Shown here piece after piece: positions 1-28,252 of a stretch of DNA of 64,000 bases. Position numbers and translations under genes: made by a program. The DNA comes from an uncultured Candidatus Bathyarchaeia archaeon (GTDB lineage: Archaea > Thermoproteota > Bathyarchaeia > RBG-16-48-13 > CAYWPD01): the NCBI GenBank assembly GCA_964460055.1, contig CAYWPD010000001.1, positions 1,376 through 65,375 on the forward strand, written 5' to 3'. Position 1 is the stretch's first letter; each line of letters starts with the position of its first letter. The notes under the pieces were generated by a model. That model saw only the letters and a program-made list of their open reading frames with translations. It searched no databases and was not told where the DNA came from.

Positions 1-174
1 GGGATCTCTCTCATAGGCGTCCCGACTTGCGACAGGTCTCGAGAAGCTTCGGCAGCTCAAGCCTTTTACCATTTTCTTGAGTCATGACGTGACTCTCCAG
101 ATGAATTCCTCAAGGATTCAGCTCTGACATCTTTTTATCGAACTGTAATAGTCTCACCTGAAAGGCTGGAAGAC

Positions 175-1431
175 ATGGGAAGTGGAGCTAAGCCGAGATA
201 TGAATGGCTCATCTTGGCAATGATGGCTCTCTCGTACTTCCAAGTCCAGTTTCATCGAATCTCCCCATCACCTTTGATCCCCATCTTGATGGACGAGTTA
301 GGCCTGACATACGCGGTTGCGGGTTTACTCTCTTCAGCCTTCTTCATCTGCTACACATCGATGCAGATACCCACAGGCGTCTTGATAGAGACATTGGGAG
401 TGAAGAAAATAGTGCTCCCCTTTATGGCGCTCTTCGCCTCTGGGGCTGTAGTGTTCAGTCAAGGAAGAGACATTGGAACGCTGCTAGCTGGGAGGGTCAT
501 AATGGGTCTAGGCTCGAGCGTGATATGGGTGTCAACCCTCAAACTTATCTCGATATGGTTCCCGGTCGAAAAGAGAGCCACAGCTACTGGCCTTGCCAAC
601 TCAGCTGGAGGCATAGGTTCGTTCATGGCCTACATAGTCCTCCCATTTCTATCGGCGACGATGGGCGGGTGGAACACACCCTACCTGACAATATCCTCTT
701 TGCTCTTGATCACACTGGCCCTGCTCGCACTGTTCCTAAAGGATGCTCCTGCAGGTCTTAGGCCCGATGAGGAAAGTTCCCTTGGCAACTGGTCCATCGT
801 CAAGGAGAATATGCGCGCTGTGTTCGCGGTGAAAGATTTCCGCCCTTTCGTTGTCGCATCGGTGATTAGTGGGATTGGTTGGTCGTTGATTCTCTGGATG
901 CCAAAGTTCTTGGTAGACGTGAGGGGCCTGTCGTATGTGAACGCCGATTTGATCTCCTCATCGATTACAGTTGCTATGATACCGGGCGGAGCGTCGATCG
1001 GCTTCATCTCCGACAGACTCAAGAAGCGCAAATTGCCGCTGTTTCTGGGTTCGATGATGAGTACAGCTCTGATAGTAGTCTTCGTGGCGCTTCCGACTGG
1101 ATCATCCTACGTTTTGATGGGCTTCGTGGGTTTCGTGGTCGGTCTCTTCTGGTCTACTTGGATTCTGGGCTTCAGCATGGTATCGGAGATCCTGCCCAGA
1201 AGAGCATTAGGCACCGGCTTAGGATTCTATAATATGTGCAACTTCATTGGTTCAATTTTCGCTCCACCACTACTGGGAGCTTTGGTAGATTGGACAGGGA
1301 CCTATGCTGCACCAATTCTCTTCGCTCTTTCTGCTCTGGTTGTTCAAACCTTGATCTACATCTTTCTGGTGAAGGAGACGTATTTGAGAAACGCACATCT
1401 GCAAGCCGGTGAGCGGCGCAGTCAAGCTTGA
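175..1431 (+). CDS. MFS transporter
   Basis: The 418-aa ORF has about 12 predicted hydrophobic helices and a glycine-rich N-terminal half (e.g. GRVIMGLGSS) typical of major facilitator transporters. The call comes from sequence features only. Confidence 0.78.
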   Translation: MGSGAKPRYEWLILAMMALSYFQVQFHRISPSPLIPILMDELGLTYAVAGLLSSAFFICYTSMQIPTGVLIETLGVKKIVLPFMALFASGAVVFSQGRDIGTLLAGRVIMGLGSSVIWVSTLKLISIWFPVEKRATATGLANSAGGIGSFMAYIVLPFLSATMGGWNTPYLTISSLLLITLALLALFLKDAPAGLRPDEESSLGNWSIVKENMRAVFAVKDFRPFVVASVISGIGWSLILWMPKFLVDVRGLSYVNADLISSSITVAMIPGGASIGFISDRLKKRKLPLFLGSMMSTALIVVFVALPTGSSYVLMGFVGFVVGLFWSTWILGFSMVSEILPRRALGTGLGFYNMCNFIGSIFAPPLLGALVDWTGTYAAPILFALSALVVQTLIYIFLVKETYLRNAHLQAGERRSQA

Positions 1432-1456
1432 GTCTGTAAAGTTTGTTGCTCTCAGG

Positions 1457-2410
1457 TCACAGAACTTGGCCAAGGCATGGATCTGTTAGCAAGTCATAGC
1501 ATAAGTGGCACCTATTCACGTAGTTGTCGCGCCGCTTTGAACCGAGAAGTCTCTGAAGGCCTAAGGGTCCCTCAGCGCTGAGCGTTCTGAACAATGGGCG
1601 GTGACTTGCCTCCTCGATGAGCCTCCTCAATTTGTTGTTTTTTACGTTTCCTATCACAGCTGTGTCTGTTGATGCCGCCGCGGAGCAGCATGGAAGAACA
1701 TTCCCCGAAGGTGCTATGCCTACATCGCGGAGAATGGCCCGACACGGTCCCTCGAAGGAGCCGTTGCTGACGAGCCACTCTTCTCTTGGGATTTCCATTG
1801 CTCTGCCTATCGGAATGAATCCCGTCTCGATAGCTAGGGCGACAGGATGGTCCTTTGGTGACCCTGCCCCTATGATTCGGATGTCTTTGTCTTCTAGCAG
1901 TCTAGTGACCTCTCCTACCCTTAATCTGCTTGATTTTGCTGCAGCGCACATGATGATTATCTTTAGCCCAAGCTTTTTCGCCGCTTCGTAGCAGTTGCGG
2001 ACTCGATCAAATGGGATGTGGCGTTGATGGAAATCGTCGGCGCTTATGTTGATCGCATCGAGTCCGGCATCTACGAGCTTCTTCAATATCCTCTCGGCTT
2101 CTTCCTTCGTTGTTGCCCAGAAGCAATTCGTGACGCACTCTGTGTGAAATCCTCTACTGGCTGTGTAGCTGACGAGTTCTAGGAGTGTCTCCGGGAGCAA
2201 GAACGGTTCCCCACCCGTGAGACTGATCCATTCAACAGTCGGGATCTCCAGAGCTTGGTCGATGTAGTCAGCGGCTTCAACCAAGGCCATCTTAGCCTTC
2301 TTGTCCGGACCACAACCAAACCAACAGTGGCTACATGTCACGTTGCACTGCTCTGTAAGGAGCAAAGCCACCCGAAAGGTTCCAAACGGATCTTCCACGT
2401 GTGCTAACAT
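1457..2410 (-). CDS. radical SAM protein with C-terminal SPASM/twitch-like cysteine cluster
   Basis: The N-terminus carries CNVTCSHC, a CxxxCxxC radical-SAM cluster motif, followed by a GGEPFL glycine-rich SAM-binding region. The C-terminus has extra cysteines (PCC, then CHLCYDLLTDPC) resembling a truncated SPASM or twitch auxiliary-cluster domain. It is 30 bp downstream of the M28 peptidase on the same strand. Confidence 0.8.
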   Translation of the reverse strand: MLAHVEDPFGTFRVALLLTEQCNVTCSHCWFGCGPDKKAKMALVEAADYIDQALEIPTVEWISLTGGEPFLLPETLLELVSYTASRGFHTECVTNCFWATTKEEAERILKKLVDAGLDAINISADDFHQRHIPFDRVRNCYEAAKKLGLKIIIMCAAAKSSRLRVGEVTRLLEDKDIRIIGAGSPKDHPVALAIETGFIPIGRAMEIPREEWLVSNGSFEGPCRAILRDVGIAPSGNVLPCCSAAASTDTAVIGNVKNNKLRRLIEEASHRPLFRTLSAEGPLGLQRLLGSKRRDNYVNRCHLCYDLLTDPCLGQVL

Positions 2411-2440
2411 GTGATTTACGGGCCATTGTGAATCAGGGAT

Positions 2441-4324
2441 CTAGATGGCGGCTTTAAACTTCGCCAGTGTGTCCTTTATGAGCTCGTTGGCTAGGTAGAG
2501 TTCGTCCTCAACAATGTTCTTTTGTCTTTGGAGCTTTGTCAGCATGAACTTGAACTCTGGTGACTGTGGTAGAGACATCTCCGCGAGCTTTAGCATTCCA
2601 TAGATCCGGGGGAATGGTGTAGCTCCGAAGGTTTCCATGGACATCTGCTCCGTCCTTTCTGCGTCTGAGTGGGCTACGAGGTTGATGTGTCTCGATACCC
2701 ACATGATGCACCGGTTCAGTTCCTCCAGCATCTCATCAGTTGCTGCCCCATCCACCGCCTTCCTCACAGTGCCCTCCAGCCTCTCTGCCAACTCCCGAAA
2801 TTCTCTGGCCCTCTCAATGACTGAATTGATATTGAAATAGAAACTGATCTTGCCAGCCCCAGCTTGAAGGTCTTCAAGTATCTTGAGCATGGCGTCAGCA
2901 TATGGGACGAAGTTCATGGGCAGGACTGGGCAGTTCGTAACCTTGAAGATGAAGTTGAGGTTCACCTTCACATCTGTGCCAAGGATGTCTATATCGCCAT
3001 GCTCGATGGTTTCGTAGGGCGTATGCCACCACCAACCGCCGCCCGAGTAGTTCACAAAGGGATCATACAGATCCTTGGGACGAGCTGAGATGGTGCTTGC
3101 ATGAGGAAGTCCTGTCCCCCAGAAACTGTGGTCTCCAGCCCGACTCGGCCAATGGGAGCCTTCGACCTTTACGCCCGCAACCGACGCTATGCTTTCAGTA
3201 ACCAACTCCTGCAATTCACCTATAGGGGCCTCTCTGTAGGTGGTGGCTCCCTCAGTTCCAGGCGAATCGATGTTGAAGAAGGCAGTACAGTAATACCGCA
3301 GCTCGTGCCAGAAAGCGTCATTGTACCAAGTTGAACCACCATAGCGCCCTATCTCATGAGCAGTCCAGAATGCGAACCGAATGCTCCGTTTGAGCTTCTC
3401 ACTGTGCCCGTTGAGGACGCGCGCCAGTTCGAGGATGGCTACATTACCAGAGGCGTTGTCTACAGCGCCGGGTGAGAAAGGTGGTGTATCAACATGGCCA
3501 TTCACCAACATGAACTTCTCCGGATCTCTCACCCCTCTAATCTCGGCGACCAAGAGTGGCAACTTCTTCCATCCAGTCTCCACGATGGAGGTGACATGAG
3601 CGCGCATGTTTCCCTGCTTCGCGAGAACCTTCAGCCGCTGACCATCTCTATTAGACACGTGGACTATGGCCGAGATCCGCTGGACTAAGTCTATGCTGTC
3701 GATGGTCGGATTTCCCGAAACGGAGAAGTCAGCGCGTTGGTGGCATATCGTCGGCATGAACGAGTCTTGTTCGATGACAATGAGGCCCTTGACGCCCATA
3801 TTTTGTAGCTTTAACAACAGTGCGCCTTGAAGCCCCATCCAGTCACCAGAAGTCTTCTGCTCCGCCAGTACGATTTTTCCACGGCAATCTATTCTGCCGA
3901 TTTGCTCTGGGTCTATGTAGATGACTTCGCCTTCTATGCCCTCAGGCCCGGTCGTCCCTACCTGACGGTAAGGTGTGCATTGAACCTCGACCATCTCCGG
4001 AGACAGTACCTCGAGTCTGGCCAACTTGGGTTCGCTGATGTAAGCTTCGTATCGGAGCACCTGTGGTTTGAGGCCGTATTCCTCGAGCTTCGATTTCAGG
4101 AACTGAATGGCCTTTTCCTCTTGTTGACTACCGGAGGGGAGAGGGGTCAGCTCCATGAGGCTCTTCCAGTTCCTTTGCAACTCTTCCTTGGAGACTTCAC
4201 CTTCAAGCTCAGCTAGGAGCTCTTTATCTTCGTCTGTGAGCCAGATCATGAAAATACCTCGATAATGGTTCCTCTCGAAAGGAGGGGTATAAGATTTGTT
4301 GGCACTGTCGCTGTCCCTGCGCAT
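2441..4324 (-). CDS. M28 family metallopeptidase (aminopeptidase-like, with PA-type insert)
   Basis: Conserved M28 zinc-ligand regions are present: NGHVDT, DNASGNVAILELARVL and FAFWTAHEIG. There is no N-terminal signal peptide. An internal Met at 4249 preceded by a GAGGU Shine-Dalgarno-like element may be the true start. Confidence 0.72.
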   Translation of the reverse strand: MRRDSDSANKSYTPPFERNHYRGIFMIWLTDEDKELLAELEGEVSKEELQRNWKSLMELTPLPSGSQQEEKAIQFLKSKLEEYGLKPQVLRYEAYISEPKLARLEVLSPEMVEVQCTPYRQVGTTGPEGIEGEVIYIDPEQIGRIDCRGKIVLAEQKTSGDWMGLQGALLLKLQNMGVKGLIVIEQDSFMPTICHQRADFSVSGNPTIDSIDLVQRISAIVHVSNRDGQRLKVLAKQGNMRAHVTSIVETGWKKLPLLVAEIRGVRDPEKFMLVNGHVDTPPFSPGAVDNASGNVAILELARVLNGHSEKLKRSIRFAFWTAHEIGRYGGSTWYNDAFWHELRYYCTAFFNIDSPGTEGATTYREAPIGELQELVTESIASVAGVKVEGSHWPSRAGDHSFWGTGLPHASTISARPKDLYDPFVNYSGGGWWWHTPYETIEHGDIDILGTDVKVNLNFIFKVTNCPVLPMNFVPYADAMLKILEDLQAGAGKISFYFNINSVIERAREFRELAERLEGTVRKAVDGAATDEMLEELNRCIMWVSRHINLVAHSDAERTEQMSMETFGATPFPRIYGMLKLAEMSLPQSPEFKFMLTKLQRQKNIVEDELYLANELIKDTLAKFKAAI

Positions 4325-4464
4325 AGAGAACTTAGAATTTCCTTGTGAAGCTCTATCTCGTCGGTTGAAAGTCAGATTGCAGTCTAGATCTTCGACACTG
4401 GCCTAATCGGGAGAGAAATCCTTTCAAATTTGGCCACCCCCATGAGTGCGAGAGGAAAGGCCGT

Positions 4465-5091
4465 TTGAGAATTTCCGTAATAGTTCCAATCACCGGTTTG
4501 AATGAAGATGGCCTCGCTGAAAGAGTGAAGGTGCTGAACTCCATCAAAAGGCCTGATACCGTGATAGAGTTTTACAGAAGCGTTTCTGGACCGCCTGCGA
4601 TCGAGACGCGCGTAGACCATGATCTCGCCGTGCCCGAGATCCTGAGACTGGTTAAGGAAGCTGAGAACAAGGGTAGTGACGCAGCCATAATTTGGTGTGC
4701 CGGTGATCCCGGCCTCGAATCTTCCAGAGAGCTTGTCGACATTCCGGTAGTCGGTCCGAGACAAGCCTCATTCTCAATCGCCATGAACCTAGGCAGCAAC
4801 CCTACGGTACTGCCGCCTCCGTTACCCGTTCTTGAGCTGCGAAAGGATCTGGAGAAGACGATGCGTCTGGCCGAGAAGGCTGCAAGAGACTTGATGCGGA
4901 GCAGCAACTCGGATGTCTTGATTCTTGGCTGCATGGGGCTCTTCGGCCTGGCTAGGAAGCTTAGTATCAATCTGGGGATTCCTGTGATCGATCCTGCGGA
5001 GGCCGCTCTCAGCATGGCGGAGACTCTAGCGCACCTCAAATTGAGGCACAGCAGGCTCACCTATCCGAAGTACGAACCTCCTTCTAGATGA
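4465..5091 (+). CDS. Asp/Glu/hydantoin racemase family protein
   Basis: The roughly 208-aa size, an N-terminal IxVIxP motif and two conserved Cys (WCAGDPG and LGCMG) are positioned like the catalytic pair of hydantoin/Asp-Glu racemases. Confidence 0.6.
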   Translation: MRISVIVPITGLNEDGLAERVKVLNSIKRPDTVIEFYRSVSGPPAIETRVDHDLAVPEILRLVKEAENKGSDAAIIWCAGDPGLESSRELVDIPVVGPRQASFSIAMNLGSNPTVLPPPLPVLELRKDLEKTMRLAEKAARDLMRSSNSDVLILGCMGLFGLARKLSINLGIPVIDPAEAALSMAETLAHLKLRHSRLTYPKYEPPSR

Positions 5092-5560
5092 CGCCTAGGA
5101 TTCAACTCCCGTCCCCGCCTTTTGGGATGAATTTCAATACTGTCGGCGGGAATTGACCTCTTTTATTCGTGTCTTCTGAAGCGTCTGATGTCGTCAGAGC
5201 CACAGACATACTCGAGGCCTGTTTCGATGAGTGAGCTGGCTCCTTCGACGTTTTTGGCAACTTTGCAGACGTATTCGTCATCCTTAGACCATATGAGCTG
5301 TGTATGGACCAAGATGTGGCGCGCGGAATCACGATGGGCTGGACCGAAATTAAGCCGAAATGAGGTCAAGTCCACTAGCGTGCACTAGATCTTCGAGCAA
5401 TCGCGTGCTTTCGCTAGGGATATCGGAAGACATGAAGCGCACGCGGGGGTTTTCATTCTAGTTTTCGCAGGATCTTCGCATCTGTCGTCCACGTAGTCGG
5501 GGAGAGAAGGCTTCAGTTGCGCGCGCTCAAAGAGAGAATGTGTGCGGGAAAACAAACGCT

Positions 5561-6655
5561 TCAGATCTGTAGAAAAGTCTGGATGAGCCTTGCGATCAGC
5601 ATTGCGGCAACCGAAGCCGTGATCAATGCGAGCTTTCCTATTAGTGGGTTCTCAATCGGCCAAGTCCTAACAGTCATGAGTTTCCTTTCTACAGTTTCCA
5701 ACGTCAATAGCCTGATCATGTTCTGGTCATCCTTCTCACCTGTTTCTTCGATGCGGCTAATGAGTTCTGACAATAGCTTATTTGTCGATGCGATTTCGGC
5801 CCTTTTCGCTTCGAGCAGCCTATTGTGAGTACTCACCAACGGCGCTATGAATAGTGTTATCCCGACAGGAACTAGGACGAGCATAAAAATCACGTTTACC
5901 ACAGATGTCTGGCCTGCTAATCCGCCAAGAATCATCTGCCCCGCAAAAAGAGTCAATCCCAAGAAATATGCCGATAAAAATGAAAAGGCCAGGGACCCTA
6001 ATTTCCTAGTCCCTAGCGTTGGATCCTCGTGATAAGATTTGAGCTTGAGGTTCTGCTTTCCAAATCGATAAAGTCCCAGTAGAGATGCGCAATATAGCCA
6101 CAGTATGGAGCCAAACATCACGGAACGAACGAGAGAACGGAGAATGTAAATTGGAGTGCTAAGAACAGTCAGCTCACCTTTGCCTACCAGCTCTGGGACG
6201 GATGTCGCGTAGACAAATAAGAAGACGGACATTATTACCAGCTGAGGAAAATATTCGGAAACGATATTGAAAATTCTGCGCACGTCCTTTTCTCCGTTTG
6301 GAGCCAGAGATATCAGCTCTGGTTCAGCTTTGACCAAACACATTCCAAGATAACGTATGATGAAAGCTACATAAAAAAGGAAAACGTACCAAAGAACGTT
6401 GCCTGCTAGGGAATACCAGTTGGACTGGACTGCCGCCACGAGTCCGAATTCTTCTGCATTCGTCGATATGAAAGTTTGATATAAGGCACCTATGGCATTG
6501 TGTGACACTGAGTACAGGTAAAGGAAATTCCCAAGTGGCCCAGCGAAAGCCGCAACGAAGATGGTGCCAAGCACGGATGGTAGATGTGAAAAAACAAGCG
6601 TTTTTTCGAGCAGTGTTGGACGAAAGCTATCTGTCTTTTTCTTCGTGGAACTCAC
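5561..6655 (-). CDS. polytopic membrane protein, uncharacterised (paralog A)
   Basis: A 364-aa ORF with multiple hydrophobic helices. It shares architecture with the adjacent 6807..7877 ORF, including a central LKLK(S/P)..ED motif and a C-terminal TWP(I/F) motif followed by a final helix. Confidence 0.6.
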   Translation of the reverse strand: MSSTKKKTDSFRPTLLEKTLVFSHLPSVLGTIFVAAFAGPLGNFLYLYSVSHNAIGALYQTFISTNAEEFGLVAAVQSNWYSLAGNVLWYVFLFYVAFIIRYLGMCLVKAEPELISLAPNGEKDVRRIFNIVSEYFPQLVIMSVFLFVYATSVPELVGKGELTVLSTPIYILRSLVRSVMFGSILWLYCASLLGLYRFGKQNLKLKSYHEDPTLGTRKLGSLAFSFLSAYFLGLTLFAGQMILGGLAGQTSVVNVIFMLVLVPVGITLFIAPLVSTHNRLLEAKRAEIASTNKLLSELISRIEETGEKDDQNMIRLLTLETVERKLMTVRTWPIENPLIGKLALITASVAAMLIARLIQTFLQI

Positions 6656-6806
6656 TTTCCTTTAATTCTTATGTCTGTTTGGAGCTTGATTTGCATTTGT
6701 TCGTGAACCTGCTCGGTTTGGGTCTGCGTATTTCTAACATCTGCGAACTTTGTTTTTGAGGTGGGCAAGTTGTCCACAACTGAGCTCATTCTGGGCTGAA
6801 TCATCT

Positions 6807-7877
6807 TCACAAGTTCATAACAACTGTAAGTATGTTAGCTAGCAATATCGCTGTCACGGAAAGCAGAATCGTGAGCATGTGTCCTAGTACCCCTGTGTCA
6901 AAGGGCCAAGTGGGGATTCTCTCGAGTCTCTTTTCCATAAAATCCATCAACAGCAATTTCTGGATGCAGTTGGGATTCTTCCCTATCTTTGTTTCGCCGT
7001 CCACAGACGAAATTTGCAGAGTCCTACGTTCTTCTAGGAGTTTATGCCTCTCGAGCTCCTTTTGCTCGACCATTTTTCTGCGAAAAACATTGATAGTGAG
7101 TAGGAATGCAATCAATCCGAAAACCACCAGGGTCAACTCAAATGCGAGGTTCACAGCCGTCGGAGTGATTTCAACGCCGGAAGCCAAGATTCCGAGCCCT
7201 CGCAAACCTACAGCTCCAAAGTACACTAGAACTAGAGCGAGAGAAATCGAACCGATTGGACCAAGGCCAAAGAGAGAGTCTTCTGAGGAGGGTTTCAACT
7301 TCATCGATTCTTTTGCAAGTTTGCGAAGACTCCAGACTGAACTGAAGAATAGCCATATTCCTGTTCCTCCTGCAAAGTAGAGTGTGACTTGCGAAAGCAC
7401 GACATATACCGAGCTGAAGCTCCCCAAAGATAGAGCAATCATCTTGTAGGCACTTGGCGCAAAACATGCCCCGATTATGGTTGTTGTCGCAAGTGCACCA
7501 ATTCGACTCGAAACGATGCGGAAATCCTTATCGAATGCTTCTTCTCCGGCTAAGAGCAAGGGTGAAAGTGCGGTTCGCGCCTTCACTAGTTGCCGTCGGA
7601 AATACCTTACGAAATAGAAGAGGTAGAACATGAAGCCCCCATACGCTATAGTCCAGTAGAACACGATAGCACGCCAGTAGCTTTCTGAACCAGTTACGGT
7701 TCCAGCGATAGAGAACGTCTGGGCGAGATTGTAGGAATCAAGGTATCTTGTCAACAAATAACCTGGGAATCCAAGCGTCAGAGTAAGAAGAATACAGCTA
7801 GCAGTGTAGGGGAGGGGTATGAAAGTCACAAATCCCTCGAAGAGGGTCTCTGTCACAGGCTCTCTCGAACCCTTCAC
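6807..7877 (-). CDS. polytopic membrane protein, uncharacterised (paralog B)
   Basis: A 356-aa ORF that is a tandem paralog of 5561..6655: same strand, 150 bp apart, with similar helix layout and conserved short motifs. Confidence 0.6.
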   Translation of the reverse strand: MKGSREPVTETLFEGFVTFIPLPYTASCILLTLTLGFPGYLLTRYLDSYNLAQTFSIAGTVTGSESYWRAIVFYWTIAYGGFMFYLFYFVRYFRRQLVKARTALSPLLLAGEEAFDKDFRIVSSRIGALATTTIIGACFAPSAYKMIALSLGSFSSVYVVLSQVTLYFAGGTGIWLFFSSVWSLRKLAKESMKLKPSSEDSLFGLGPIGSISLALVLVYFGAVGLRGLGILASGVEITPTAVNLAFELTLVVFGLIAFLLTINVFRRKMVEQKELERHKLLEERRTLQISSVDGETKIGKNPNCIQKLLLMDFMEKRLERIPTWPFDTGVLGHMLTILLSVTAILLANILTVVMNL

Positions 7878-8067
7878 TGAAAGCGTGCCTAGCCATTCTC
7901 TGAGTCCCGTATTGACGCCACTCCCGGTGGTTCTTGACCAGAAAAGTATTTAAATCTTCCCACATTGGAAAGAGATCTCTCACATTTGCGGACAATTCGC
8001 ACGTTTCGCTGGCAAGATATTTCCAAAATGTTAAATACCCGCGTTTCGATCTGGAATCAGAGGAAAT

Positions 8068-8631
8068 ATGCCTAATAGACTGGACGAACTTGACCTGAAG
8101 ATCATTCGACAGCTGCAAATTGATGCCAGAGCCTCGGTAACAGAGTTGGCTGAGAAAGTAGAGTCGTCTCGTCCTACGACGACAAATAGATTGAAGCGGT
8201 TACTGGACGAGGATCTGATTCTCATAAGGGGAGGTTTGAATCTTCGACAATTTGGCTTCAAAGTTGCACAAGTCGGTCTGGAGGTTCGAACCGACAACGC
8301 TAGAAAGAAAATCGAGAGCCATCTAAGGAACTGCCCCAGAGTCTTGGACATCTTTAGAACTCCCGAGAAGGCGAACATTCACTTGAACCTATGGGGAGAG
8401 GACGATCAAACGATCAACTCGACAATAGAAAGTTTTCGCGATCAGCAAAATGTAGGCATAGTCTACACTCGCTACCTGGGAACCCCTATTCACGGAGATA
8501 TCCCCGTTCATGTTGAAACGAGAAAGAATGATGAAACTCCATGCGGCAGGAAATGTAGTGGATGCCACAGCTATCAAAATGCATGGTGCAGAGGTTGTCC
8601 ATCGTCATCAGACTACAAAACTTTCTTCTAA
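8068..8631 (+). CDS. Lrp/AsnC family transcriptional regulator with Cys-rich C-terminal extension
   Basis: N-terminal HTH_AsnC pattern (LDELDLKIIRQLQIDARASVTELAEKV) is followed by a RAM-like domain. A roughly 40-aa tail, CGRKCSGCHSYQNAWCRGC, gives CxxxCxxC...CxxC. Confidence 0.8.
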   Translation: MPNRLDELDLKIIRQLQIDARASVTELAEKVESSRPTTTNRLKRLLDEDLILIRGGLNLRQFGFKVAQVGLEVRTDNARKKIESHLRNCPRVLDIFRTPEKANIHLNLWGEDDQTINSTIESFRDQQNVGIVYTRYLGTPIHGDIPVHVETRKNDETPCGRKCSGCHSYQNAWCRGCPSSSDYKTFF

Positions 8632-8797
8632 ATGTCTAAGGAGGCCAGGCGTGCTCCGAGACTTCCTAAGATACTTTGCGCGCATGCCACATTTCGCGAG
8701 TATCGACGAAAGGCCAACTCAAGACGTGTCTCCGACGTACTCGATCTCTTGGACGCCTAAACGTAGGGCAGAATGAAAAAACAGAAGAGCCCCAGTC

Positions 8798-10408
8798 CTA
8801 GGACTGCCTCCTTCTTAGAACCATGCCTGCTCTCGCGCCTATATGCTCTCCATTTTCTACCGCAGCCTCACCGTTGACTATTACATAGCGGATGCCCTGA
8901 GGATACCGATGTGGGTCTTGGTATGTTGCAAGATCCAACACCGTATCAGGGTCGAAGATTGTTACGTCGGCCTGCATTCCTTCGGCCAGGAGCCCACGGT
9001 CGAGTAGCCCAAGTCTACGAGCCGGCAGTGAGGTCATCTTGCGGACTGCTTCCTCAAGCCGCAGGATCTTCTTATCGCGTATGTACCTGCCTAGAACCCG
9101 TGGGAAGGTTCCGTAGTTTCGGGGATGAGGCTTTCCAACATGGAGTTTTCCATACGGGGCATAACTGCTTCCGTCCGTCCCTATCATTGAACCGGGATAT
9201 CGAAGCACCGTTTCGACGTCCTGCTCATTCATCTCAAAGATCACTATCTGGGCGACGCCTTTGCTCTCCACGAGCAGATCGAAGGCAGTGTCGATTGGAT
9301 CCCTGTCTCTCAGCTTTGCGATCTCGGCGACGCTCTTTCCTTCCAGTGATCTGTCTGGGTCAAACTGTGAGATGATTATGTTCTCCCATCCGGCCTGCCT
9401 AGCTAAGTCTTCCCATCTGGGTATGCCTTCTATTATCTCGTGTTTCAGTCTCGATCTGATTTTCTTATCGCCCAGTCTGCTCACTAGGTTCGAAAGCCCT
9501 TCTTCATGAGCCCAAGTCGGAATACAGGCACTGAGGTCCGTACTTCCTGCCGTATACGGGTACACATCGCAGGTGACGTCAACTCCTCTCTTGCGTGCCT
9601 CCTCGATCATCCGTAGAGAATCGTTTACCTTGCCCCAGTTCTCGCTCCCCGCCGCCTTGTGATGCGATATCTCCACTGGCACCCCGGCTCTTTCTCCGAT
9701 CGCTATTGCCTCGTCCACAGCTTCAAGAAGGTAGTTGCTTTCATTTCTGATGTGACTGGAATAGAATCCTCCGTATCCTGATACGACTTTGCATAGTTCA
9801 ACAAGTTCTTCTGTCTTTGAGTATGAGCCTGGTGCGTATATCAGTCCTGAAGAGAGTCCTCGAGCGCCATCCTTCATAGCCTCTCCGACAAGCCCCTTCA
9901 TCTCTTCCATTTCGACTTCGGTTGGACTCCGATTATCGTAACCCATCACGGCAATTCGCACAGTGCCGTGGCCTACCAGTGGGGCGACATTGACTGAGAT
10001 CTTTCTCTCTTCCAGAGTCCTCAGATAGTCTTCGAAGGATCTCCAAGCCCAGTTGACCTCTTCTGCTAGCGGCATGCAGTTCTTCTTCAGAAGGTCCAGT
10101 CTGTCCTCGCGTATGGGTGCGAGTGTTGAACCACAATTTCCTAGAACCTCTGTGGTAACTCCTTGTCTGATCTTGCTTTCTGCCAAGGGGTTTATGAGGA
10201 GATGGAGGTCCGAATGGCTATGCATGTCGATGAAGCCTGGTGCAACTATGAGGCCGGAGCCGTCTATTGTGAGATTAGGCTCGGCTCCGTGGAAAGGGCC
10301 TATTCCTGAGATTTTGTCGGATTCGATCAGAACATCAGCCTTAAACCACGGATTCCCGGTTCCGTCGACGACGAACCCATTCTTAATCAGAACGTCTCCC
10401 ATCACCAT
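8798..10408 (-). CDS. N-acyl-D-amino-acid deacylase (D-aminoacylase) family amidohydrolase
   Basis: The ORF has a metal-binding GFIDMHSHSD motif, is about 536 aa long, and carries the glycine-rich C-terminal region typical of D-aminoacylase-type amidohydrolases. Confidence 0.68.
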   Translation of the reverse strand: MVMGDVLIKNGFVVDGTGNPWFKADVLIESDKISGIGPFHGAEPNLTIDGSGLIVAPGFIDMHSHSDLHLLINPLAESKIRQGVTTEVLGNCGSTLAPIREDRLDLLKKNCMPLAEEVNWAWRSFEDYLRTLEERKISVNVAPLVGHGTVRIAVMGYDNRSPTEVEMEEMKGLVGEAMKDGARGLSSGLIYAPGSYSKTEELVELCKVVSGYGGFYSSHIRNESNYLLEAVDEAIAIGERAGVPVEISHHKAAGSENWGKVNDSLRMIEEARKRGVDVTCDVYPYTAGSTDLSACIPTWAHEEGLSNLVSRLGDKKIRSRLKHEIIEGIPRWEDLARQAGWENIIISQFDPDRSLEGKSVAEIAKLRDRDPIDTAFDLLVESKGVAQIVIFEMNEQDVETVLRYPGSMIGTDGSSYAPYGKLHVGKPHPRNYGTFPRVLGRYIRDKKILRLEEAVRKMTSLPARRLGLLDRGLLAEGMQADVTIFDPDTVLDLATYQDPHRYPQGIRYVIVNGEAAVENGEHIGARAGMVLRRRQS

Positions 10409-10414
10409 TTTCTC

Positions 10415-12076
10415 CTATTCATTCTCTTGTGCTTCGAAAGAATTGACCTGTCTAGGTTTCTGATAGACTATTTTTCCCCCGACGATGGTCACGTCGACCT
10501 CGACATTCTTTATCCGCTCGGTTGGTATGATGGTTATGTCCTCATGTAGGACAGTGATATCTGCCAATTTTCCTTGCTCTATTGAACCCTTCAGATCCTC
10601 TTCAAAGGAGGCGTATGCTCCATCGATCGTATATGCTCTCAACGCGTCGACAACACTGATGCACTCACTCTCATCAAGGACCATTCTGGCCATCGTCTTC
10701 CGCGTGATCATTCCGTAGATACCTAGCATTGGGTTCTCCGAGCAGACTGGGAAGTCTGAATGTCCAGGCGCTCTAATGCCGAGGGATTTCAAGGTTCTGT
10801 GTGGGAGCACATTCCTCATTCTGCCTTCGCCTAGGTTCGCTAGATAGGCGTCTCCGAGATCATAGATGAAACCGGCCGCCGACATGTTCAACACATCGAG
10901 ACGCTTCAGCCTCGCCGCAATGCTTGAAGTGACATAACAGCAGTGCTCTATCCTATGCCGGTGATTCTTCTTGGGCAGAGCTTCCAGAGCTTTCTCTATG
11001 GCATCTAGGCATGCATCTATCCCTCTGTCTCCGACTCCATCCAATCCGACGCGGAGACCTGCCTTGTGAGCTTGAAGAACCATGGAGTTCATCACCTCCG
11101 GCGGATAGAGAATGAATCCTCGGTTTTCCGGTTCCCCCAAATATGGCTCATAGTATGCAGCTGTTCTGCCGCTTGTGCTGCCATCAAAGACCCATTCGAT
11201 GCCGATTACCTTGATCCACTCGTCTCCAAAACCCGTTTCCAGCCCCGTCTTTATCAGCGCTGAGAGCAGTCCCTCCTCCCCTCCATCCATCATCAGGCCA
11301 ACTCTGATCGGCAGTTCTCCTTCCCTGCGAAGTTCTTGGAAAGCCTTCAAATGTAGCGAGCCGGCGGTCGAGGCTTGTATACTTGTTATACCGCATCGCG
11401 TAAGTTGCTGGAAGCAGAGTTTCAGGCCTTTCTTGATGTCTTCTAGCGTGTAAGGTGGGATCGAGTCTCGGACGAGTTCTTGGGCCCTTCCTCTCAAAAC
11501 TCCCGTGAGTTCTCCATCGGATGCTCTATCTAGCTTTCCGGAGGGTGGATCTTTGGTCTCTCTTCCAACCTCTGCCTTCTCGAACGCCAAAGTGTTGCCG
11601 ACGCTCACATGCCCATCTACTCTTCTGACGTATACTGGGTTGCATGGGGCCGCTTCATCCAGCTCCCACCTTGTGACGTGCCTATTCTCTTCGAGTTTGG
11701 TATTGTCGTAGCCCCAGGCTATTATCCAAGTGCCTGGCTCTGTATGCTTCGCCTTCTTCGAGATCTCAGTCTTCAGATCTGCGATGGATTTGACTTTAGG
11801 GTATCTGCAGTCCACCTCACTCAGCAGCCTTGTGGCGAGATGGGTTGGATGTGTATGGGAATCCACTATTCCAGGAATCGCACATCTTCCCGAGAGATCG
11901 ATCTTCACTGTCTTAGGCCCTGCCGATGATAGAGCCTCATCGCTAGTCCCGACGAAAGTGATTCTGTCGGACTTGATGACAACAGCTTGGGCGATGGTAT
12001 CGTCCTCATCGAGAGTAACTATCTTCCCGTTGAAGAGAACTAAGTCGGCGCTCACACGATCTGTTGTCGCGATCAT
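10415..12076 (-). CDS. amidohydrolase family protein (Amidohydro_3 / YtcJ-like metal-dependent hydrolase)
   Basis: A 553-aa ORF with an N-terminal IPGIVDSHTHP metal-binding motif, a C-terminal HSDFPV and a GKLADITVL-type terminus typical of Amidohydro_3 enzymes. Confidence 0.7.
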   Translation of the reverse strand: MIATTDRVSADLVLFNGKIVTLDEDDTIAQAVVIKSDRITFVGTSDEALSSAGPKTVKIDLSGRCAIPGIVDSHTHPTHLATRLLSEVDCRYPKVKSIADLKTEISKKAKHTEPGTWIIAWGYDNTKLEENRHVTRWELDEAAPCNPVYVRRVDGHVSVGNTLAFEKAEVGRETKDPPSGKLDRASDGELTGVLRGRAQELVRDSIPPYTLEDIKKGLKLCFQQLTRCGITSIQASTAGSLHLKAFQELRREGELPIRVGLMMDGGEEGLLSALIKTGLETGFGDEWIKVIGIEWVFDGSTSGRTAAYYEPYLGEPENRGFILYPPEVMNSMVLQAHKAGLRVGLDGVGDRGIDACLDAIEKALEALPKKNHRHRIEHCCYVTSSIAARLKRLDVLNMSAAGFIYDLGDAYLANLGEGRMRNVLPHRTLKSLGIRAPGHSDFPVCSENPMLGIYGMITRKTMARMVLDESECISVVDALRAYTIDGAYASFEEDLKGSIEQGKLADITVLHEDITIIPTERIKNVEVDVTIVGGKIVYQKPRQVNSFEAQENE

Positions 12077-12629
12077 TCTCTCACCCGGCCCATGTGATAT
12101 CAGATTGAAACTTTGGATTGTGTGGTTGCGCTGAGCTCATAATGGTTGAGGTTTCCAATTTGTCCCGACCGAAGCAGTGCCCTGACCGCTCTGCTGATGA
12201 CGTTATTCACCGCTCTTCTTCCAGAAGTATCTGCAGTTGATACTGTTGAGGAAAATTCTTCACCCGGGTGTTTTCGGTGCTCTGTCTGGGTGAACGAATC
12301 GGGCCCTGATAGTTCAGTTCGCGATGGCGCCTCCTACAGAGTATTCCGGCTGATAGTTCTCTGTTTCAAAGGATGACAGGCCAAGCTGAAAAGTAGCTGA
12401 ATCTGGCAAATGCTTTTTGGGTGAGTATTCTCAGTCTAGTGTTGGAGATGAAGCAGCCGTCCCAGACGGACCTCTTGGCGAAGAGAGATGGCGACCTCGT
12501 GACGAGCTGATCCACCTTTCTTAAGGAGAAAGAACAGGCCCTTCAAAACGTCTTTTGAATTTCTGTTCCAATCGAAATTGTCGCTCAATCGGATATCGGC
12601 TTGATCATTGTCTTGAGAAGAGTCGCACC

Positions 12630-13778
12630 CTATAGCTCAGTCCCGGGTATACGTCTTTCTCGACTTTGGAAAAACAGTAGGAATGTGGAAAACGATGTCA
12701 AGAGCGCGAACAGCAAGAAAGGAGACCTAAGATCGACTCCTAGGAGAGGAGTGACCAAGATCGGCATAGCGGGAAACGATAGGTCGATGACGCCGTCAAA
12801 GAAGGCCATGTATAGACTCTCCATGCCCGAGGGTGCCGATTTCGCTATCATGGCACCGGACTGGACGAAGACCGCTCCAAGGGTCACACCTAGCCATCCC
12901 ATCCAGACGGCCATCAGGACAGGGTTCTTCGAGATGTAAAGCAAAAAGAAGGGTGGCACGCAAGACAGTGCAAAGAAGGCGGCCAAGAATCGGCCTCTCC
13001 ATTTCTCGAATACGACTCCGAGAGGGATCTGAAAAAGCAGGAACGTTACGAAATAGGAAGAAAGAATCAATCCTATCGTGACATTCGAGAACCCTTCGGA
13101 TGACCCGATGAGAGGAATGACCAATTCAAAGCCTGCAAATCCAATTTCTACGAGAAAGACCGCTAGACATACCATTACTACGGAGTATCTGGAGAGCAGG
13201 TCTCTAATGGAGTGTCTGAAGGTCTCTCTTGCGGCGACTGTTTTCTTCTCCGAAATCAGTATCATCGTGGGAATGCCGGCTGCACTAACCAGCGCACTCA
13301 GGAAGAATGGATACGAAAGATTCAGCGACCCAAGGATTCCTCCCAATATGGGTGCGATCATCATTCCAAATCCTTGGAAAGTCCTGTAGATCGAAAAACT
13401 CTTCGACTTCTCTCCCATCTGAGCGATCAATCCCAAAACGGCTGGTCCAAAGATCCCAAGCCCTATACCCTGGATGACACGGAAGACTACAAGTTGAAAG
13501 AAGGTCTGGGCGACCCCACATAGTAGGGCAGAGGCTCCATAGGTTGCCAAACCCAATGACCCAAGTCTCTTTTTGCCGTACTTATCGCAAAGATGCCCGG
13601 TAAACATCTCAAGTAAGGCCCAAGTTAGAGAATAAGCGGAAAAAAAGGCCCCTATTTCCGCATACGTCACCCCATACTTCTCGACGTATTGAGGGAGGAT
13701 TGGCGACACTACGAACAGTCCGAAGGTACTGAGGAATCCCAAGACAGATGTGCCCAGTAGCGCAATCTTTCTTTCCAA
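12630..13778 (-). CDS. MFS transporter
   Basis: A 382-aa protein with about 12 hydrophobic helices and glycine-rich loops characteristic of MFS transporters. Confidence 0.78.
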   Translation of the reverse strand: MERKIALLGTSVLGFLSTFGLFVVSPILPQYVEKYGVTYAEIGAFFSAYSLTWALLEMFTGHLCDKYGKKRLGSLGLATYGASALLCGVAQTFFQLVVFRVIQGIGLGIFGPAVLGLIAQMGEKSKSFSIYRTFQGFGMMIAPILGGILGSLNLSYPFFLSALVSAAGIPTMILISEKKTVAARETFRHSIRDLLSRYSVVMVCLAVFLVEIGFAGFELVIPLIGSSEGFSNVTIGLILSSYFVTFLLFQIPLGVVFEKWRGRFLAAFFALSCVPPFFLLYISKNPVLMAVWMGWLGVTLGAVFVQSGAMIAKSAPSGMESLYMAFFDGVIDLSFPAMPILVTPLLGVDLRSPFLLFALLTSFSTFLLFFQSRERRIPGTEL

Positions 13779-13925
13779 TTAGGAACAATCCGGCGCTTCT
13801 GCCCTAGTGTGGAGCGGGCTACAGGATCAAGTTAGGCTCTTTCTGAGCGTTTCGAACTTTTAGGGATATTCTTCGCCCCTGCTCCAGTACCGAGACTCGG
13901 CTCTTTTTGGTCTCTGATAATCAGA

Positions 13926-14693
13926 CTATTTCGTTTTTTCAAGGAACTTCGTCAGGACGTATAGGATTCGATCCACTGAAGCCTCTATCAGCTTCTCACC
14001 AAGCTCTTTGGAAGCGTAGGTTGGATCTCCGACAGAACCCGTGTTTGTGTAGTCTTCGAAGTATCTTGTTGGATTGGGTTGGATCTTCTCGCTGTATCCC
14101 TTCGGTTCCAGACTGATCTCGGGCGTTCTTACAAAGGGCCTTAGAATCCTGTCCATCCTGACTGTCTCCGGCAGTAGATACATAGCCATGCTGGTCTCGA
14201 TCTCGCAGGCATGCCCCCAGAACTCGGACTTCGCCTCCTTGGCTTCTATGTCTCGCGTGAATCTCCACCAGTCAATCACCAGAATACTCCGTTCCAGTTC
14301 ATTCTGGAGCTCTGTCGCGGCCACCCACAGGGCTTGATCATTACCCCCATGCCCGTTCAGCAAGACGATCTTTCTCGCGCCATGCCTAGCTAAGCTCCTG
14401 CAGATGTCGCTTATCACTCCGATGAATGTCTCCGGGGAGAGCGTAATTGTCCCCGCAAAGTGCATATGGTGTTCGGATAGGCCGTATGAGACTCGTGGAG
14501 CCACAAGGATTCTGAGGCTCGACTTCGTTTTCTCGACGATCTTCTTGGCAACCTCGTGGGTGAGGGCAGTATCATTCTGTAGCTCCATATGGTGGGAGTG
14601 CTGTTCGTGGCTTCCGATGGGAACGATGACGTAATCGGCGGACTTGATCGCTTCGTCAGCCTCTTGCCATGTCATCCTCTCAAGCTCGAACAT
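13926..14693 (-). CDS. creatininase-family amidohydrolase
   Basis: Creatininase-family motifs are present: IVPIGSHEQHSHH, LLNGHGGN and a WGHACEIETS-like Glu/His region. It is 255 aa long. Confidence 0.75.
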   Translation of the reverse strand: MFELERMTWQEADEAIKSADYVIVPIGSHEQHSHHMELQNDTALTHEVAKKIVEKTKSSLRILVAPRVSYGLSEHHMHFAGTITLSPETFIGVISDICRSLARHGARKIVLLNGHGGNDQALWVAATELQNELERSILVIDWWRFTRDIEAKEAKSEFWGHACEIETSMAMYLLPETVRMDRILRPFVRTPEISLEPKGYSEKIQPNPTRYFEDYTNTGSVGDPTYASKELGEKLIEASVDRILYVLTKFLEKTK

Positions 14694-14817
14694 CTAATCG
14701 CCTCTGACTCAAGTCGGGTTTGACTAGAATGTGTGGAGGTTCAATAATACGCCTTTTCTCATGCGGATCTGATGGGAACCTTTTTCTCGAAGGGCAAGAG
14801 GTCTCTTCTCGAAACCG

Positions 14818-15666
14818 GTGAATAGAGGGTTGCTCAGCTCTAGGGTTGCAATCGCGAGGGGGACTGATCCGTCAGAGATGGTGCGTCAAGCAATCACTCT
14901 TCTAGATGCGGGGAGAGTGGTTAAAGGTGGAGACAGGGTTTTGATCAAGCCCAACTGCGTGGCTGACCGGACACCTTTGACGGGAATTACCACTGACCCC
15001 CGAATTGTGGAGGAGCTGATACTCTATGCGAATGAGGAAGGAGCTGAAGAGGTTGTGGTTGCAGACGGGGGATCCGTGGATACCGAGAGGGTCTTCGAGA
15101 CGACTGGGCTGAAGCGACTTGCCAAGAAGCACGGGGTCAGACTCGTCGATCTTAACAGAGACGAAAAAGTCCGAATCCAAATTCCCAATGCGATGGCCTT
15201 GACAGAGGTTGATGTTGCCAAGACGGCTCTTGACTGCAACTGCATCATCAATGTCCCGAAGCTGAAGGTTCACCACATAGCCCTCGTGACGTTGGCGATA
15301 AAGAACCTGATGGGTGTCATCCTGCCGAAGAGCATCATACACGCGCAGCTGCATGAGAAGCTCTCTGATCTGGCGACCTTCTTCAAGCCTAGGCTCAATG
15401 TGATCGATGGAACCGTCGGATCGGAGATCGACGAGGTGAATGGAAGACCGGTTCAAATGAATCTCATCATAGTCGGCGTGGACATCGTGGCCACAGATTC
15501 GGTCGGCGCAGCAGTGATGGGGATCAGTCCGCAGAGCGTCAGACACATTGCCCTATCGGAATCGAGAGGAGTAGGTTGTGCAGATCTCGATCAGATCCAA
15601 GTGGTAGGGAATAGTATCGAGAAGGTCAAGAAGAATTTTGAGTTGCCCCCTGAGTTCAGAGGCTAA
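14818..15666 (+). CDS. DUF362 domain protein
   Basis: The layout (VAIARG...V.QA..LLD...VKGGDRVLIKPN...IINVPKLKVHH) matches the DUF362 family architecture. It is divergently transcribed from the creatininase-family gene. Confidence 0.62.
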   Translation: MNRGLLSSRVAIARGTDPSEMVRQAITLLDAGRVVKGGDRVLIKPNCVADRTPLTGITTDPRIVEELILYANEEGAEEVVVADGGSVDTERVFETTGLKRLAKKHGVRLVDLNRDEKVRIQIPNAMALTEVDVAKTALDCNCIINVPKLKVHHIALVTLAIKNLMGVILPKSIIHAQLHEKLSDLATFFKPRLNVIDGTVGSEIDEVNGRPVQMNLIIVGVDIVATDSVGAAVMGISPQSVRHIALSESRGVGCADLDQIQVVGNSIEKVKKNFELPPEFRG

Positions 15667-15810
15667 ACACGAGATAACAATCGCCTGAATTAAACGATCT
15701 CCACAAGGTCTCTCTCAACTGGTAGGAGTTCACCAAACGCCCTATCGTATGTTCTTCTTTCTGGACGCTGTGTTCGGAACCCTAGCATTATCTCATCTGA
15801 AGTCGTAGGT

Positions 15811-28246: not shown

Positions 28247-28252
28247 CGGTTC

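Follow-up and report, generated by a model that had tools for sequence, protein, structure and literature searches.

Why does an archaeon keep a radical S-adenosylmethionine (SAM) enzyme beside a cytoplasmic peptidase when no peptide for the two to mature can be seen nearby? The question is raised by two genes in a stretch of 64,000 nucleotides (the window) from an uncultured Candidatus Bathyarchaeia archaeon (NCBI GenBank assembly GCA_964460055.1, contig CAYWPD010000001.1, positions 1,376 to 65,375 of the forward strand). A preliminary description of the window saw one operon in these genes. It pointed to the maturation of RiPPs (peptides made by the ribosome and modified after translation), to modification of the peptidase itself after the manner of anaerobic sulfatase-maturating enzymes (anSMEs), or to a small-molecule substrate such as a D-amino acid or a cyclic amide. 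Here, we call the radical SAM gene and its product rSAM and the peptidase-like partner M28B. Our results demonstrate that M28B and rSAM form a real, strongly conserved and uncharacterised two-gene module, paired far beyond chance. As to its function, we are inclined, though with real reserve, to see in it a catabolic module, composed of a peptide epimerase and an exopeptidase, for peptides that contain D-residues, and not a natural-product pathway.

The gene pair and its conservation

Both genes lie on the minus strand, with M28B upstream of rSAM. The features of the locus are as follows:

2441..4249, minus strand: M28B, gene of a glutamate carboxypeptidase II (GCPII)/NAALADase-like metalloprotein of 602 aa, the first gene of the pair
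1457..2410, minus strand: rSAM, gene of an EpeE/YydG-like radical SAM protein of 317 aa, the second gene of the pair
2411..2440, minus strand: inter-gene spacer of exactly 30 nt, without a promoter-like TATA element
4292..4288, minus strand: TTATA element, a putative archaeal TATA box of the operon; the ATG at 4249 follows about 41 nt downstream of it
175..1431, plus strand: MFS transporter (PF07690, 171 bits), convergent with the rSAM gene
4465..5091, plus strand: Asp/Glu/hydantoin racemase-family gene (PF01177, E 4e-27), divergent from the pair

The operon proposed in the preliminary description stands, since the open reading frame (ORF) coordinates were confirmed and the same-strand pairing is conserved; both flanking genes were also named correctly. 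Its peptidase ORF, 2441..4324 (627 aa), exists as the longest reading frame but begins too early. About 120 orthologs of M28B start at 'MIWL', which corresponds to M26 of this ORF, and the TTATA box falls inside the longer frame; hence we place the start at the ATG at 4249. The conserved GTTATACC is found upstream of the M28B start at a similar position in seven other loci. Judging from the sequence, the TTATA element putatively acts as the operon promoter, and co-transcription of the two genes fits the 30-nt spacer without a TATA element of its own. The closest database entry to the window rSAM, P0001 (98% identical), is annotated as a protein of 277 aa starting at M41; as such a start would remove the CX3CX2C motif, it is probably a miscall in the source.

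Neither protein contains a hydrophobic segment (maximal Kyte-Doolittle(19) value about 1.1; 1.08 for M28B), and so both are most likely cytoplasmic, as had already been stated for the peptidase. M28B has no membrane anchor or signal peptide, and its N-terminus is acidic and helical.

A lack of synteny elsewhere had been named beforehand as speaking against a functional link between the two genes. What we found was the opposite. Taking one genome per species, we collected 51 rSAM-anchored loci at no less than 35% identity; M28B homologs sit immediately upstream of rSAM, on the same strand, in 49. Conversely, rSAM is on the same strand as M28B in 60 of the 62 M28B-anchored metagenome loci with room downstream. 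The latter set was fetched by the patterns GGGWWWH and HQRADFSV, so that motif frequencies within it are biased, while the synteny count is not. The spacer between the two genes has a median of 14 nt (n = 118 pairs), and in 109 of the 118 pairs the genes overlap or stand no more than 60 nt apart; at locus L142 they overlap by 4 nt. M28B is the better conserved partner, with 55-74% identity across loci against 35-67% for rSAM. Overall, the unit occurs across Bathyarchaeia, which are widespread sediment archaea. The literature searched gave no link of M28 or GCPII-like proteins to radical SAM enzymes or to Bathyarchaeia.

Departures from the common arrangement are few. Two genes are inserted between M28B and rSAM at L026, and at L018 an intact rSAM stands beside nothing but a C-terminal remnant of M28B. 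The remnant (L018:9375-9905, the same as L005:7383-7950, in the complete genome CP070640) is an ORF of 188 aa matching the C-terminal helical domain (residues ~417-592), and the rSAM downstream of it keeps all motifs. This genome also encodes, elsewhere, an outgroup-type GCPII-like paralog (P0491) beside PhzF and MFS genes. M28B loci without an adjacent rSAM include L074 and L139. The M28B of L139 (192-2645) is a hybrid: its first ~70 aa are unrelated, its middle part resembles the rSAM-paired clade and its C-terminal half is outgroup-like. It may be either a natural recombinant or a chimera of metagenome assembly.

The canonical Bathyarchaeial neighbours of the pair are PhoU-like, tRNA-Pro(CGG), metallophosphoesterase, RPA-like, aminotransferase, Alba and PolD genes. 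The tRNA-Pro(CGG) gene lies immediately upstream of the pair, on the same strand, at L007, L010, L012, L031, L037, L040, L046 and L048. None of the canonical housekeeping neighbours occurs in the window, which suggests that the pair moves as a two-gene unit. Moreover, there is no tRNA gene anywhere in positions 1..64000, and we therefore consider the window copy to be relocated into a non-canonical context. Altogether, the pair was found in three unrelated contexts: that of the window, that of tRNA-Pro/RPA/PolD, and that of a Deltaproteobacteria contig (L006/L017), whose flanking genes are of other kinds (Opp, RseC, CcmH and members of the thioredoxin family). Three further metagenome-assembled genomes (MAGs) bear bacterial labels, namely Patescibacteria (L014 and L016) and Krumholzibacteriaceae (L045). 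As L016 and L045 carry the canonical Bathyarchaeial neighbourhood, their labels are probably binning errors, and the idea of a wide transfer to bacteria based on these three was set aside. We also rejected a link to luciferase-like (LLM)/F420 chemistry, because the 350-aa gene that is conserved upstream in Bathyarchaeia resembles PhoU and not luciferase.

As the preliminary description had noted, there is no credible small ORF in the intergenic regions around the pair in the window. Nor did any small ORF conserved with the pair emerge when all ORFs 25 aa or longer were clustered across 56 loci. Across ~120 loci, no conserved third gene, precursor, exporter or transporter, membrane peptidase or immunity gene stands beside it. 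The neighbourhood comparison proposed earlier as a way to a conserved small ORF thus led to a conserved peptidase partner instead. RiPP maturation, of which such pairs had at first been called the hallmark, is weakened by ~120 precursor-less loci and by the housekeeping context (tRNA-Pro, RPA, PolD, Alba) in which the pair is usually found.

Several clusters from this hunt were tried as precursors and rejected. Clusters 15, 21, 36 and 39, lying directly upstream of M28B, are translations of the tRNA-Pro(CGG) gene. Cluster 20 is a spacer conserved as DNA in one subclade, with indels that are not multiples of three and with variable starts. Cluster 10, a 42-aa transmembrane peptide missing from the window, is part of the housekeeping block downstream, with an opposite-strand gene standing between it and the pair. 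In the canonical context, a conserved single-helix membrane peptide of 36-62 aa (e.g. MTLEAFFDVLYDLIIIIAVLALILGLIHLYLSRGGE) occurs ~2.4 kb downstream of rSAM, between a 142-aa gene and the RPA-like gene, at L008, L010, L016, L021, L023, L026, L027, L035, L042 and other loci; the window does not have it, and a gene on the opposite strand keeps it apart from the pair.

In one subclade of Bathyarchaeia, the spacer between tRNA-Pro(CGG) and the M28B start spans ~350 nt, as at L040 (7817-8190), with equivalents at L037, L041, L042, L045, L046 and L048. Within it, a block of ~200 nt is highly conserved at the DNA level, again with indels out of frame. Searches of this spacer against Rfam, at gathering and at permissive thresholds, returned no match but the tRNA, and covariation is weak (3 of 33 predicted pairs). 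The block may encode a small RNA or serve as a regulatory leader for the operon.

Beyond the paired clade, we found four distant rSAM homologs (28-31% identity) without M28B. Three of these (L055, L058 and L061) adjoin an ORF with a leader-like motif, roughly F-x-x-x-P-x-A/E-x-L-x-x-x-G-L/V, recognised by eye and having no Pfam support. They come from MAGs of Blastocatellia, Methanotrichaceae and Planctomycetaceae (L055:158-4186, L058:9110-10726 and L061:653-2175, respectively). At L055, three rSAM genes surround one leader-motif ORF with a hydrophobic, Cys/Gly/Val-rich C-terminus. These three loci are possible uncharacterised RiPP clusters. The wider rSAM clade thus looks RiPP-like, and the Bathyarchaeial clade looks to have swapped a precursor-like neighbour for M28B.

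The radical SAM protein and its GCPII-like partner

What kind of radical SAM enzyme has been paired with M28B? The protein matches Radical_SAM (PF04055, 65.3 bits, cutoff 29.5) and SPASM (PF13186, 27.6 bits, cutoff 21.5). In an alignment of 43 homologs with 49-66% identity, the rSAM-cluster motif CX3CX2C (C22/C26/C29) and five C-terminal cysteines (C223, C241, C242, C301 and C304) are invariant. Both sets had been pointed out in the preliminary description and are confirmed, but the C-terminal one belongs to a single-cluster truncated SPASM domain and not to a two-cluster one: five cysteines would ligate one auxiliary cluster and leave one residue free or catalytic, as in EpeE.

Among 18,950 NCBIfam models, the top one for rSAM is TIGR04078, the YydG family radical SAM peptide epimerase (105.6 bits, residues 15-280), while all other families score at most 49 bits and cover only the N-terminal rSAM core. 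The same model is the best for all 43 sampled homologs (top E 2.3e-33), again well under its cutoff. The window rSAM does not reach the TIGR04078 equivalog cutoff of 300 bits, and at such a distance from it we do not regard the protein as a YydG equivalog or ortholog. Comparison with the anSME, PqqE, sactisynthase and ranthipeptide families, proposed earlier, yielded no family match and led to YydG/EpeE instead: PqqE scores 42 bits (cutoff 381), StsB 37 (625) and PapB 36 (340), over residues ~14-130 only. The protein also stands outside the cofactor-biosynthesis families, membership of which had been named beforehand as a second argument against the link, as MoaA (44 bits, cutoff 284), NirJ1/NirJ2 (49, 650/500), AhbC (42, 650) and AhbD (36, 500) match no more than the N-terminal core. 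A role in anti-phage defence was rejected, because PADLOC pVip likewise matches the core alone (residues 15-128, 54 bits) and M28B has no match.

Structural comparison points in the same direction. Searched against the PDB, the profile of the rSAM family finds EpeE (= YydG) at 100 bits (E 9e-28); then comes SkfB with 37 bits, while anSME has 22 bits (E 4e-4, rSAM core only). The AlphaFold2 (AF2) model of rSAM has a mean predicted local distance difference test (pLDDT) value of 91.8, and Foldseek superimposes it on EpeE (8AI1-8AI6) over its full length, with template-modelling (TM) scores of 0.80/0.79 and a root-mean-square deviation of 3.5 A over 320 columns; the next fold is BlsE, with a TM score of 0.57. 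EpeE has one auxiliary cluster in a truncated SPASM domain, its Cys223 gives a hydrogen to the C-alpha radical and its Asp210 serves as a proton relay (PMC13012085). The PCCS motif of rSAM (C241-C242) aligns with that of EpeE (C222-C223), so that C242 equals EpeE C223. In pairwise alignment, D229, invariant in the 43 homologs, falls on EpeE D210, and C223, C241, C301 and C304 map to the ligands of the auxiliary cluster. EpeE is also reported to be leader-independent and promiscuous (PMC13012085, PMC8326336), and it accepts large fusion substrates such as MBP-EpeX (PMC13012085). As the motif of rSAM starts at residue 22, there is no room in it for a RiPP recognition element (RRE). Overall, rSAM represents a distinct, unnamed family that, judging from these alignments, retains the EpeE catalytic apparatus. 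We predict that it carries an rSAM cluster and a single auxiliary [4Fe-4S] cluster and acts as a C-alpha epimerase on peptidyl residues.

The partner matches Peptidase_M28 (PF04389, 79.9 bits, cutoff 21.3). Its AF2 model (pLDDT 87, predicted TM score 0.90) aligns over ~720 columns with GCPII, GCPIII, NAALADaseL and the transferrin receptor (TfR1), with TM scores of 0.75-0.79. The architecture is that of the GCPII group, with a protease-like domain, an apical/PA domain and a C-terminal helical (dimerisation) domain. Five ligands of the binuclear metal site, assigned from alignments to YwaD and NAALADaseL, are invariant in M28B orthologs (H252, D264, E299, D328 and H409). The position of the general base is altered: 'HE' stands here, not 'EE', with His298 in 119 of 120 orthologs and an ambiguous base in the remaining one. 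PDB entries of GCPII E424A and E424M, labelled as inactive mutants, are among the best structural matches. Profile-to-PDB alignments meant for mapping the S1' glutamate pocket of GCPII proved too fragmentary, as they reach parts of the catalytic and helical domains only. The model falls below a pLDDT of 50 in just two segments, namely 133-138 (TSGDWM) and 400-408 (NYSGGGWWW, just before the ligand H409), and both loops are among the most invariant of the family.

An exhaustive profile search places the rSAM-linked M28B proteins in one tight cluster (740-1022 bits) within a superfamily of 481 representatives at E <= 1e-30, full-length homologs of ~570-610 aa. The literature searched contains no characterised member of this prokaryotic superfamily. 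Hosts include Nitrososphaeria, Heimdall-/Promethearchaeota, Chloroflexota, Armatimonadota and Bathyarchaeia (proteins P0244-P0389, ~590 aa, cytoplasmic). Sampled members carry HE, HS or HT at the general-base position, and many have a G-WWWH loop; the HS forms additionally lack one metal ligand. Since outgroups without an adjacent rSAM have HE, HS or HT, the missing general-base Glu is ancestral and not specific to the rSAM-linked clade. For the same reason, we rejected the idea that the His-for-Glu swap implies a need for maturation by rSAM.

What the pair might do

The catabolic reading, which we favour with the reserve expressed above, may be put as follows. A self-contained, co-transcribed module would handle small, probably imported, peptides in the cytoplasm. 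The [4Fe-4S] cluster of rSAM would cleave SAM to a 5'-deoxyadenosyl radical, which would take the C-alpha hydrogen from a residue inside a bound, extended peptide. Cys242, predicted to lie in a flexible loop near the single auxiliary cluster, would return a hydrogen on the opposite face and thereby invert the stereocentre, after which Asp229 and the auxiliary cluster would re-reduce the thiyl radical. The soluble, GCPII-like binuclear-metal exopeptidase would hydrolyse the peptide afterwards or trim it beforehand. In this way, an anaerobic peptide-fermenting archaeon might gain access to peptides whose D-residues, derived from peptidoglycan stems or from aged, racemised necromass, block ordinary L-specific peptidases. 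The radical SAM enzyme would take the role played in other organisms by proton-transfer racemases or MR_MLE dipeptide epimerases standing beside related peptidases. A radical enzyme can, in principle, invert internal, amide-flanked residues, which enolase-superfamily dipeptide epimerases and PLP-independent racemases cannot. Of this scheme, we infer the epimerase activity, the free peptide as substrate, the D-to-L direction, the SAM stoichiometry and hydrolysis despite His298.

Why catabolism? One reason is the likeness of rSAM to EpeE by sequence, profile and fold, with hydrogen-donor Cys, relay Asp and the 3 + 4 cluster cysteines all invariant; another is the near-obligate pairing in both directions of a unit that moves between unrelated contexts. 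The lack of any conserved precursor, transporter or immunity gene points the same way. Further support comes from the relatives of the peptidase that have no rSAM. The contexts of six outgroup GCPII-like genes without rSAM, chosen for their long contigs, plus that of L139, are what DISCRIMINATES the models; the six are as follows:

L145: outgroup GCPII-like gene near a glutamate racemase (TIGR00067, 248 bits, cutoff 147) and an Opp-type ABC importer
L147 (Armatimonadota): AroM, M28B-like gene, MR_MLE, then Opp permeases and binding protein, in this order on one strand
L148 (Bathyarchaeial paralog): PhzF-family isomerase and MFS transporter close by
L146, L149 and L150: outgroup contexts with little or nothing informative

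The best matches of the L147 MR_MLE are muconate cycloisomerase and L-Ala-D/L-Glu epimerase, both under cutoff. At L139, a racemase-family gene lies 15 nt downstream of the hybrid M28B and is 34% identical to the racemase-family gene of the window, which has no NCBIfam match and is assigned at Pfam level only. Hence, the rSAM-less relatives at L145, L147, L148 and L139 adjoin other stereo-inverting enzymes and peptide importers, and a triad of GCPII-like peptidase, stereo-inverting enzyme and peptide importer recurs.

Among the paired loci, two kinds tie the module to peptide fermentation. In the Deltaproteobacteria contig (L006/L017), an aldehyde:ferredoxin oxidoreductase (AOR) gene is followed by a five-gene Opp operon, M28B and rSAM. 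At L026 (670-2790), M28B, a 91-aa 4Fe-4S ferredoxin, a 614-aa AOR and rSAM follow one another on one strand; the AOR gene there abuts the start codon of rSAM.

In the window, too, the pair sits among genes of amide and peptide catabolism. Besides the racemase-family gene, these comprise a couple of D-aminoacylase-like Amidohydro_3 genes, a creatininase-family amidase, an M20 peptidase, an amidase and three MFS transporters. The regions 8798..14693, 20705..21988 and 36451..37812 are rich in amide hydrolases, with adjacent, PRK09061-like Amidohydro_3 genes and an amidase-signature enzyme. Such a composition suggests an island dedicated to unusual substrates, be they amides or D-amino acids. The racemase-family gene 4465..5091, which is outside the conserved pair, is possibly a functional associate in the window only, and the MFS transporter 175..1431 is a possible substrate importer, also in the window only; no MFS transporter was found beside the pair at other loci. 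Between the racemase-family gene and an AsnC-type regulator sit two tandem, paralogous genes of multi-pass membrane proteins (5561..6655 and 6807..7877, both on the minus strand; 27% identity, E 1e-28), for which Pfam and NCBIfam gave no match. The regulator (8068..8631, plus strand) is of the AsnC/Lrp helix-turn-helix type, has an unusual Cys-rich C-terminal tail (…CGRKCSGCHSYQNAWCRGCPSSS…) and is divergent from the two D-aminoacylase-like amidohydrolase genes.

Several points weigh against the catabolic reading. For epimerisation and for its direction, the argument is one of homology at ~20% identity, with a TIGR04078 score far below the cutoff (see above). His298 in place of the GCPII general base E424 leaves hydrolysis by M28B a putative activity. 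One SAM per epimerisation is costly for catabolism, unless SAM is regenerated. The sample of outgroup contexts is small and non-random (six contigs and L139), two or three of them are uninformative, and the L147 MR_MLE and the window racemase are assigned by scores under curated cutoffs or by Pfam alone. Near the pair in its commonest Bathyarchaeial context, there is no transporter or other catabolic gene. Finally, a tight 1:1 coupling would follow just as well if rSAM had the peptidase itself as its substrate.

This last point leads to the rival that survives best, although we consider it unlikely. It supposes that rSAM is a dedicated maturase of M28B. Once per molecule, the enzyme would epimerise, or otherwise modify at C-alpha, one residue of a flexible, invariant loop in the active site of M28B, and this modification would be required for activity. 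Near-obligate 1:1 pairing in both directions with spacing of the translational-coupling type, as well as the absence of a precursor, would be natural under such a scenario, and a single modification per protein keeps the SAM cost low. In the distant rSAM relatives, the adjacent gene looks like a substrate, and M28B holds that position here. The maturase idea also draws on the two low-confidence but most invariant loops of M28B, on the missing canonical general base and on the tolerance of EpeE for large fusion substrates. However, both the His-for-Glu replacement and the G-WWWH loop are ancestral in a superfamily whose sampled members have no adjacent rSAM, so that they do not call for such an enzyme. 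The genome CP070640 retains an intact rSAM beside a mere remnant of M28B, L074 has M28B without an adjacent rSAM, and the racemase and epimerase neighbours of outgroup peptidases suggest a stereochemical problem posed by small molecules. Moreover, we know of no EpeE-type enzyme that acts on a folded 600-aa protein. The more specific proposal, that an M28B loop such as NYSGGGWWWH (400-409) receives a D-amino acid or some other C-alpha modification from rSAM, is rather unlikely. The analogy with anSME from which the preliminary description had started fails at the family level (22 bits, against 100 bits and a TM score of 0.80 for EpeE); modification of the peptidase is now a less probable reading.

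We consider it quite unlikely that rSAM performs other chemistry (such as C-alpha thioether formation, dehydrogenation or cleavage) or that the pair acts on an amide other than a peptide, such as an N-acyl-amino acid or a cofactor's gamma-glutamyl tail. The low identity to EpeE and the TIGR04078 score leave space for such a reading, as does the altered active site of M28B, but the hydrogen-donor Cys and relay Asp specific to epimerases are invariant, and a sactisynthase-type outcome would not need them. With regard to the substrate, the GCPII fold is associated with glutamate-terminated compounds, GCPII itself acts on folyl-poly-gamma-glutamate, and amidohydrolases acting on non-peptide amides abound in the window; what speaks against such a substrate is the presence of Opp-type oligopeptide importers in operons with the pair or its relatives. 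In this respect, the small-molecule suggestion of the preliminary description fared well in part: the link to D-amino-acid chemistry lies closest to the comparative evidence, but the likely substrate is a peptide and not a free D-amino acid or a cyclic amide.

It is improbable that rSAM epimerises a RiPP precursor encoded elsewhere and M28B removes its leader or trims it: the nearest characterised relative is indeed a RiPP maturase, peptidase and rSAM are a frequent RiPP combination and the distant homologs at L055 (with its three rSAM genes), L058 and L061 adjoin leader-motif ORFs, but these ORFs were recognised by eye, neither a precursor nor an exporter or immunity gene is present at ~120 loci, the pair is kept by vertical descent across Bathyarchaeia among housekeeping genes, unlike RiPP clusters, which are patchy, and the partner has the fold of a cytoplasmic exopeptidase and not of a typical leader peptidase.

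Each of the two foremost readings would have its consequences. If the pair degrades D-residue peptides, radical peptide epimerisation extends to primary catabolism, and there is a testable mechanism by which anaerobic subsurface archaea could use peptidoglycan remnants and racemised necromass. If rSAM instead matures the peptidase, we would face a new kind of post-translational modification of an enzyme; M28B would be the first protein-level, non-RiPP substrate of a radical SAM epimerase and, with a D-residue in its loop, the first large metabolic enzyme to require an enzymatically introduced D-residue. Either reading brings to light a large, uncharacterised prokaryotic GCPII-like superfamily without the canonical catalytic Glu. 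As M28B and rSAM are two small soluble proteins, they are open to direct expression and assay.

Comparison with known systems

How, then, does the pair relate to systems already described? The nearest one is EpeE (YydG) from the epipeptide pathway of Bacillus subtilis, to which rSAM is by far closest in sequence and profile and almost equal in length (317 aa against 319 aa). The two share their fold over the full length, the combination of one rSAM and one auxiliary cluster, and the correspondences C242 = C223 and D229 = D210. They differ in that rSAM is ~20% identical to EpeE and reaches 105 of the 300 bits of its family model. Furthermore, the window pair is accompanied by no EpeX/YydF-like precursor, EpeP membrane peptidase or EpeAB transporter; rSAM is archaeal, occurs in a core-genome context and has an obligate, GCPII-like cytoplasmic partner. 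To our knowledge, every radical SAM peptide epimerase characterised so far, whether EpeE/YydG or a proteusin enzyme, works in the biosynthesis of bacterial natural products. What is new here is an EpeE-type radical SAM enzyme outside a RiPP context and with a new obligate partner.

The proteusin epimerases PoyD and OspD also perform radical SAM C-alpha epimerisation of peptides with the help of a critical Cys of the enzyme (PMC8326336); unlike them, rSAM has an auxiliary cluster and no RRE. For anSME, the likeness consists in a radical SAM enzyme with a C-terminal Fe-S domain encoded next to a hydrolase, which made it the model for the maturase idea. anSMEs are two-cluster SPASM enzymes that oxidise a Cys or Ser within a defined motif of their sulfatase clients, yielding formylglycine, whereas rSAM matches them weakly and in the core only, its neighbour is an M28 protein and not a sulfatase, and nothing indicates a client motif or formylglycine chemistry.

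With GCPII/NAALADase (MEROPS M28B) and the transferrin receptor, M28B shares the three-domain architecture and the five metal ligands. It departs from GCPII in having no type II membrane anchor or signal peptide, in carrying His for E424 and in its own SGGGWWWH loop before the last His ligand.

Finally, we would like to comment on the murein-peptide catabolic clusters of E. coli (ycjG/mpaA) and B. subtilis (ykfABCD), in which an MR_MLE L-Ala-D/L-Glu epimerase is combined with peptidases and a peptide ABC transporter. The logic of epimerase, peptidase and importer seems to be the same: L147 has an analogous arrangement around an outgroup gene, and at L006 the Opp genes are followed by M28B and rSAM. 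The differences are that the candidate epimerase of the window is a radical SAM enzyme and that the peptidase is of another family. Judged by this analogy of arrangement, the murein-peptide catabolic cluster appears to be the closest functional counterpart of the Bathyarchaeial pair.

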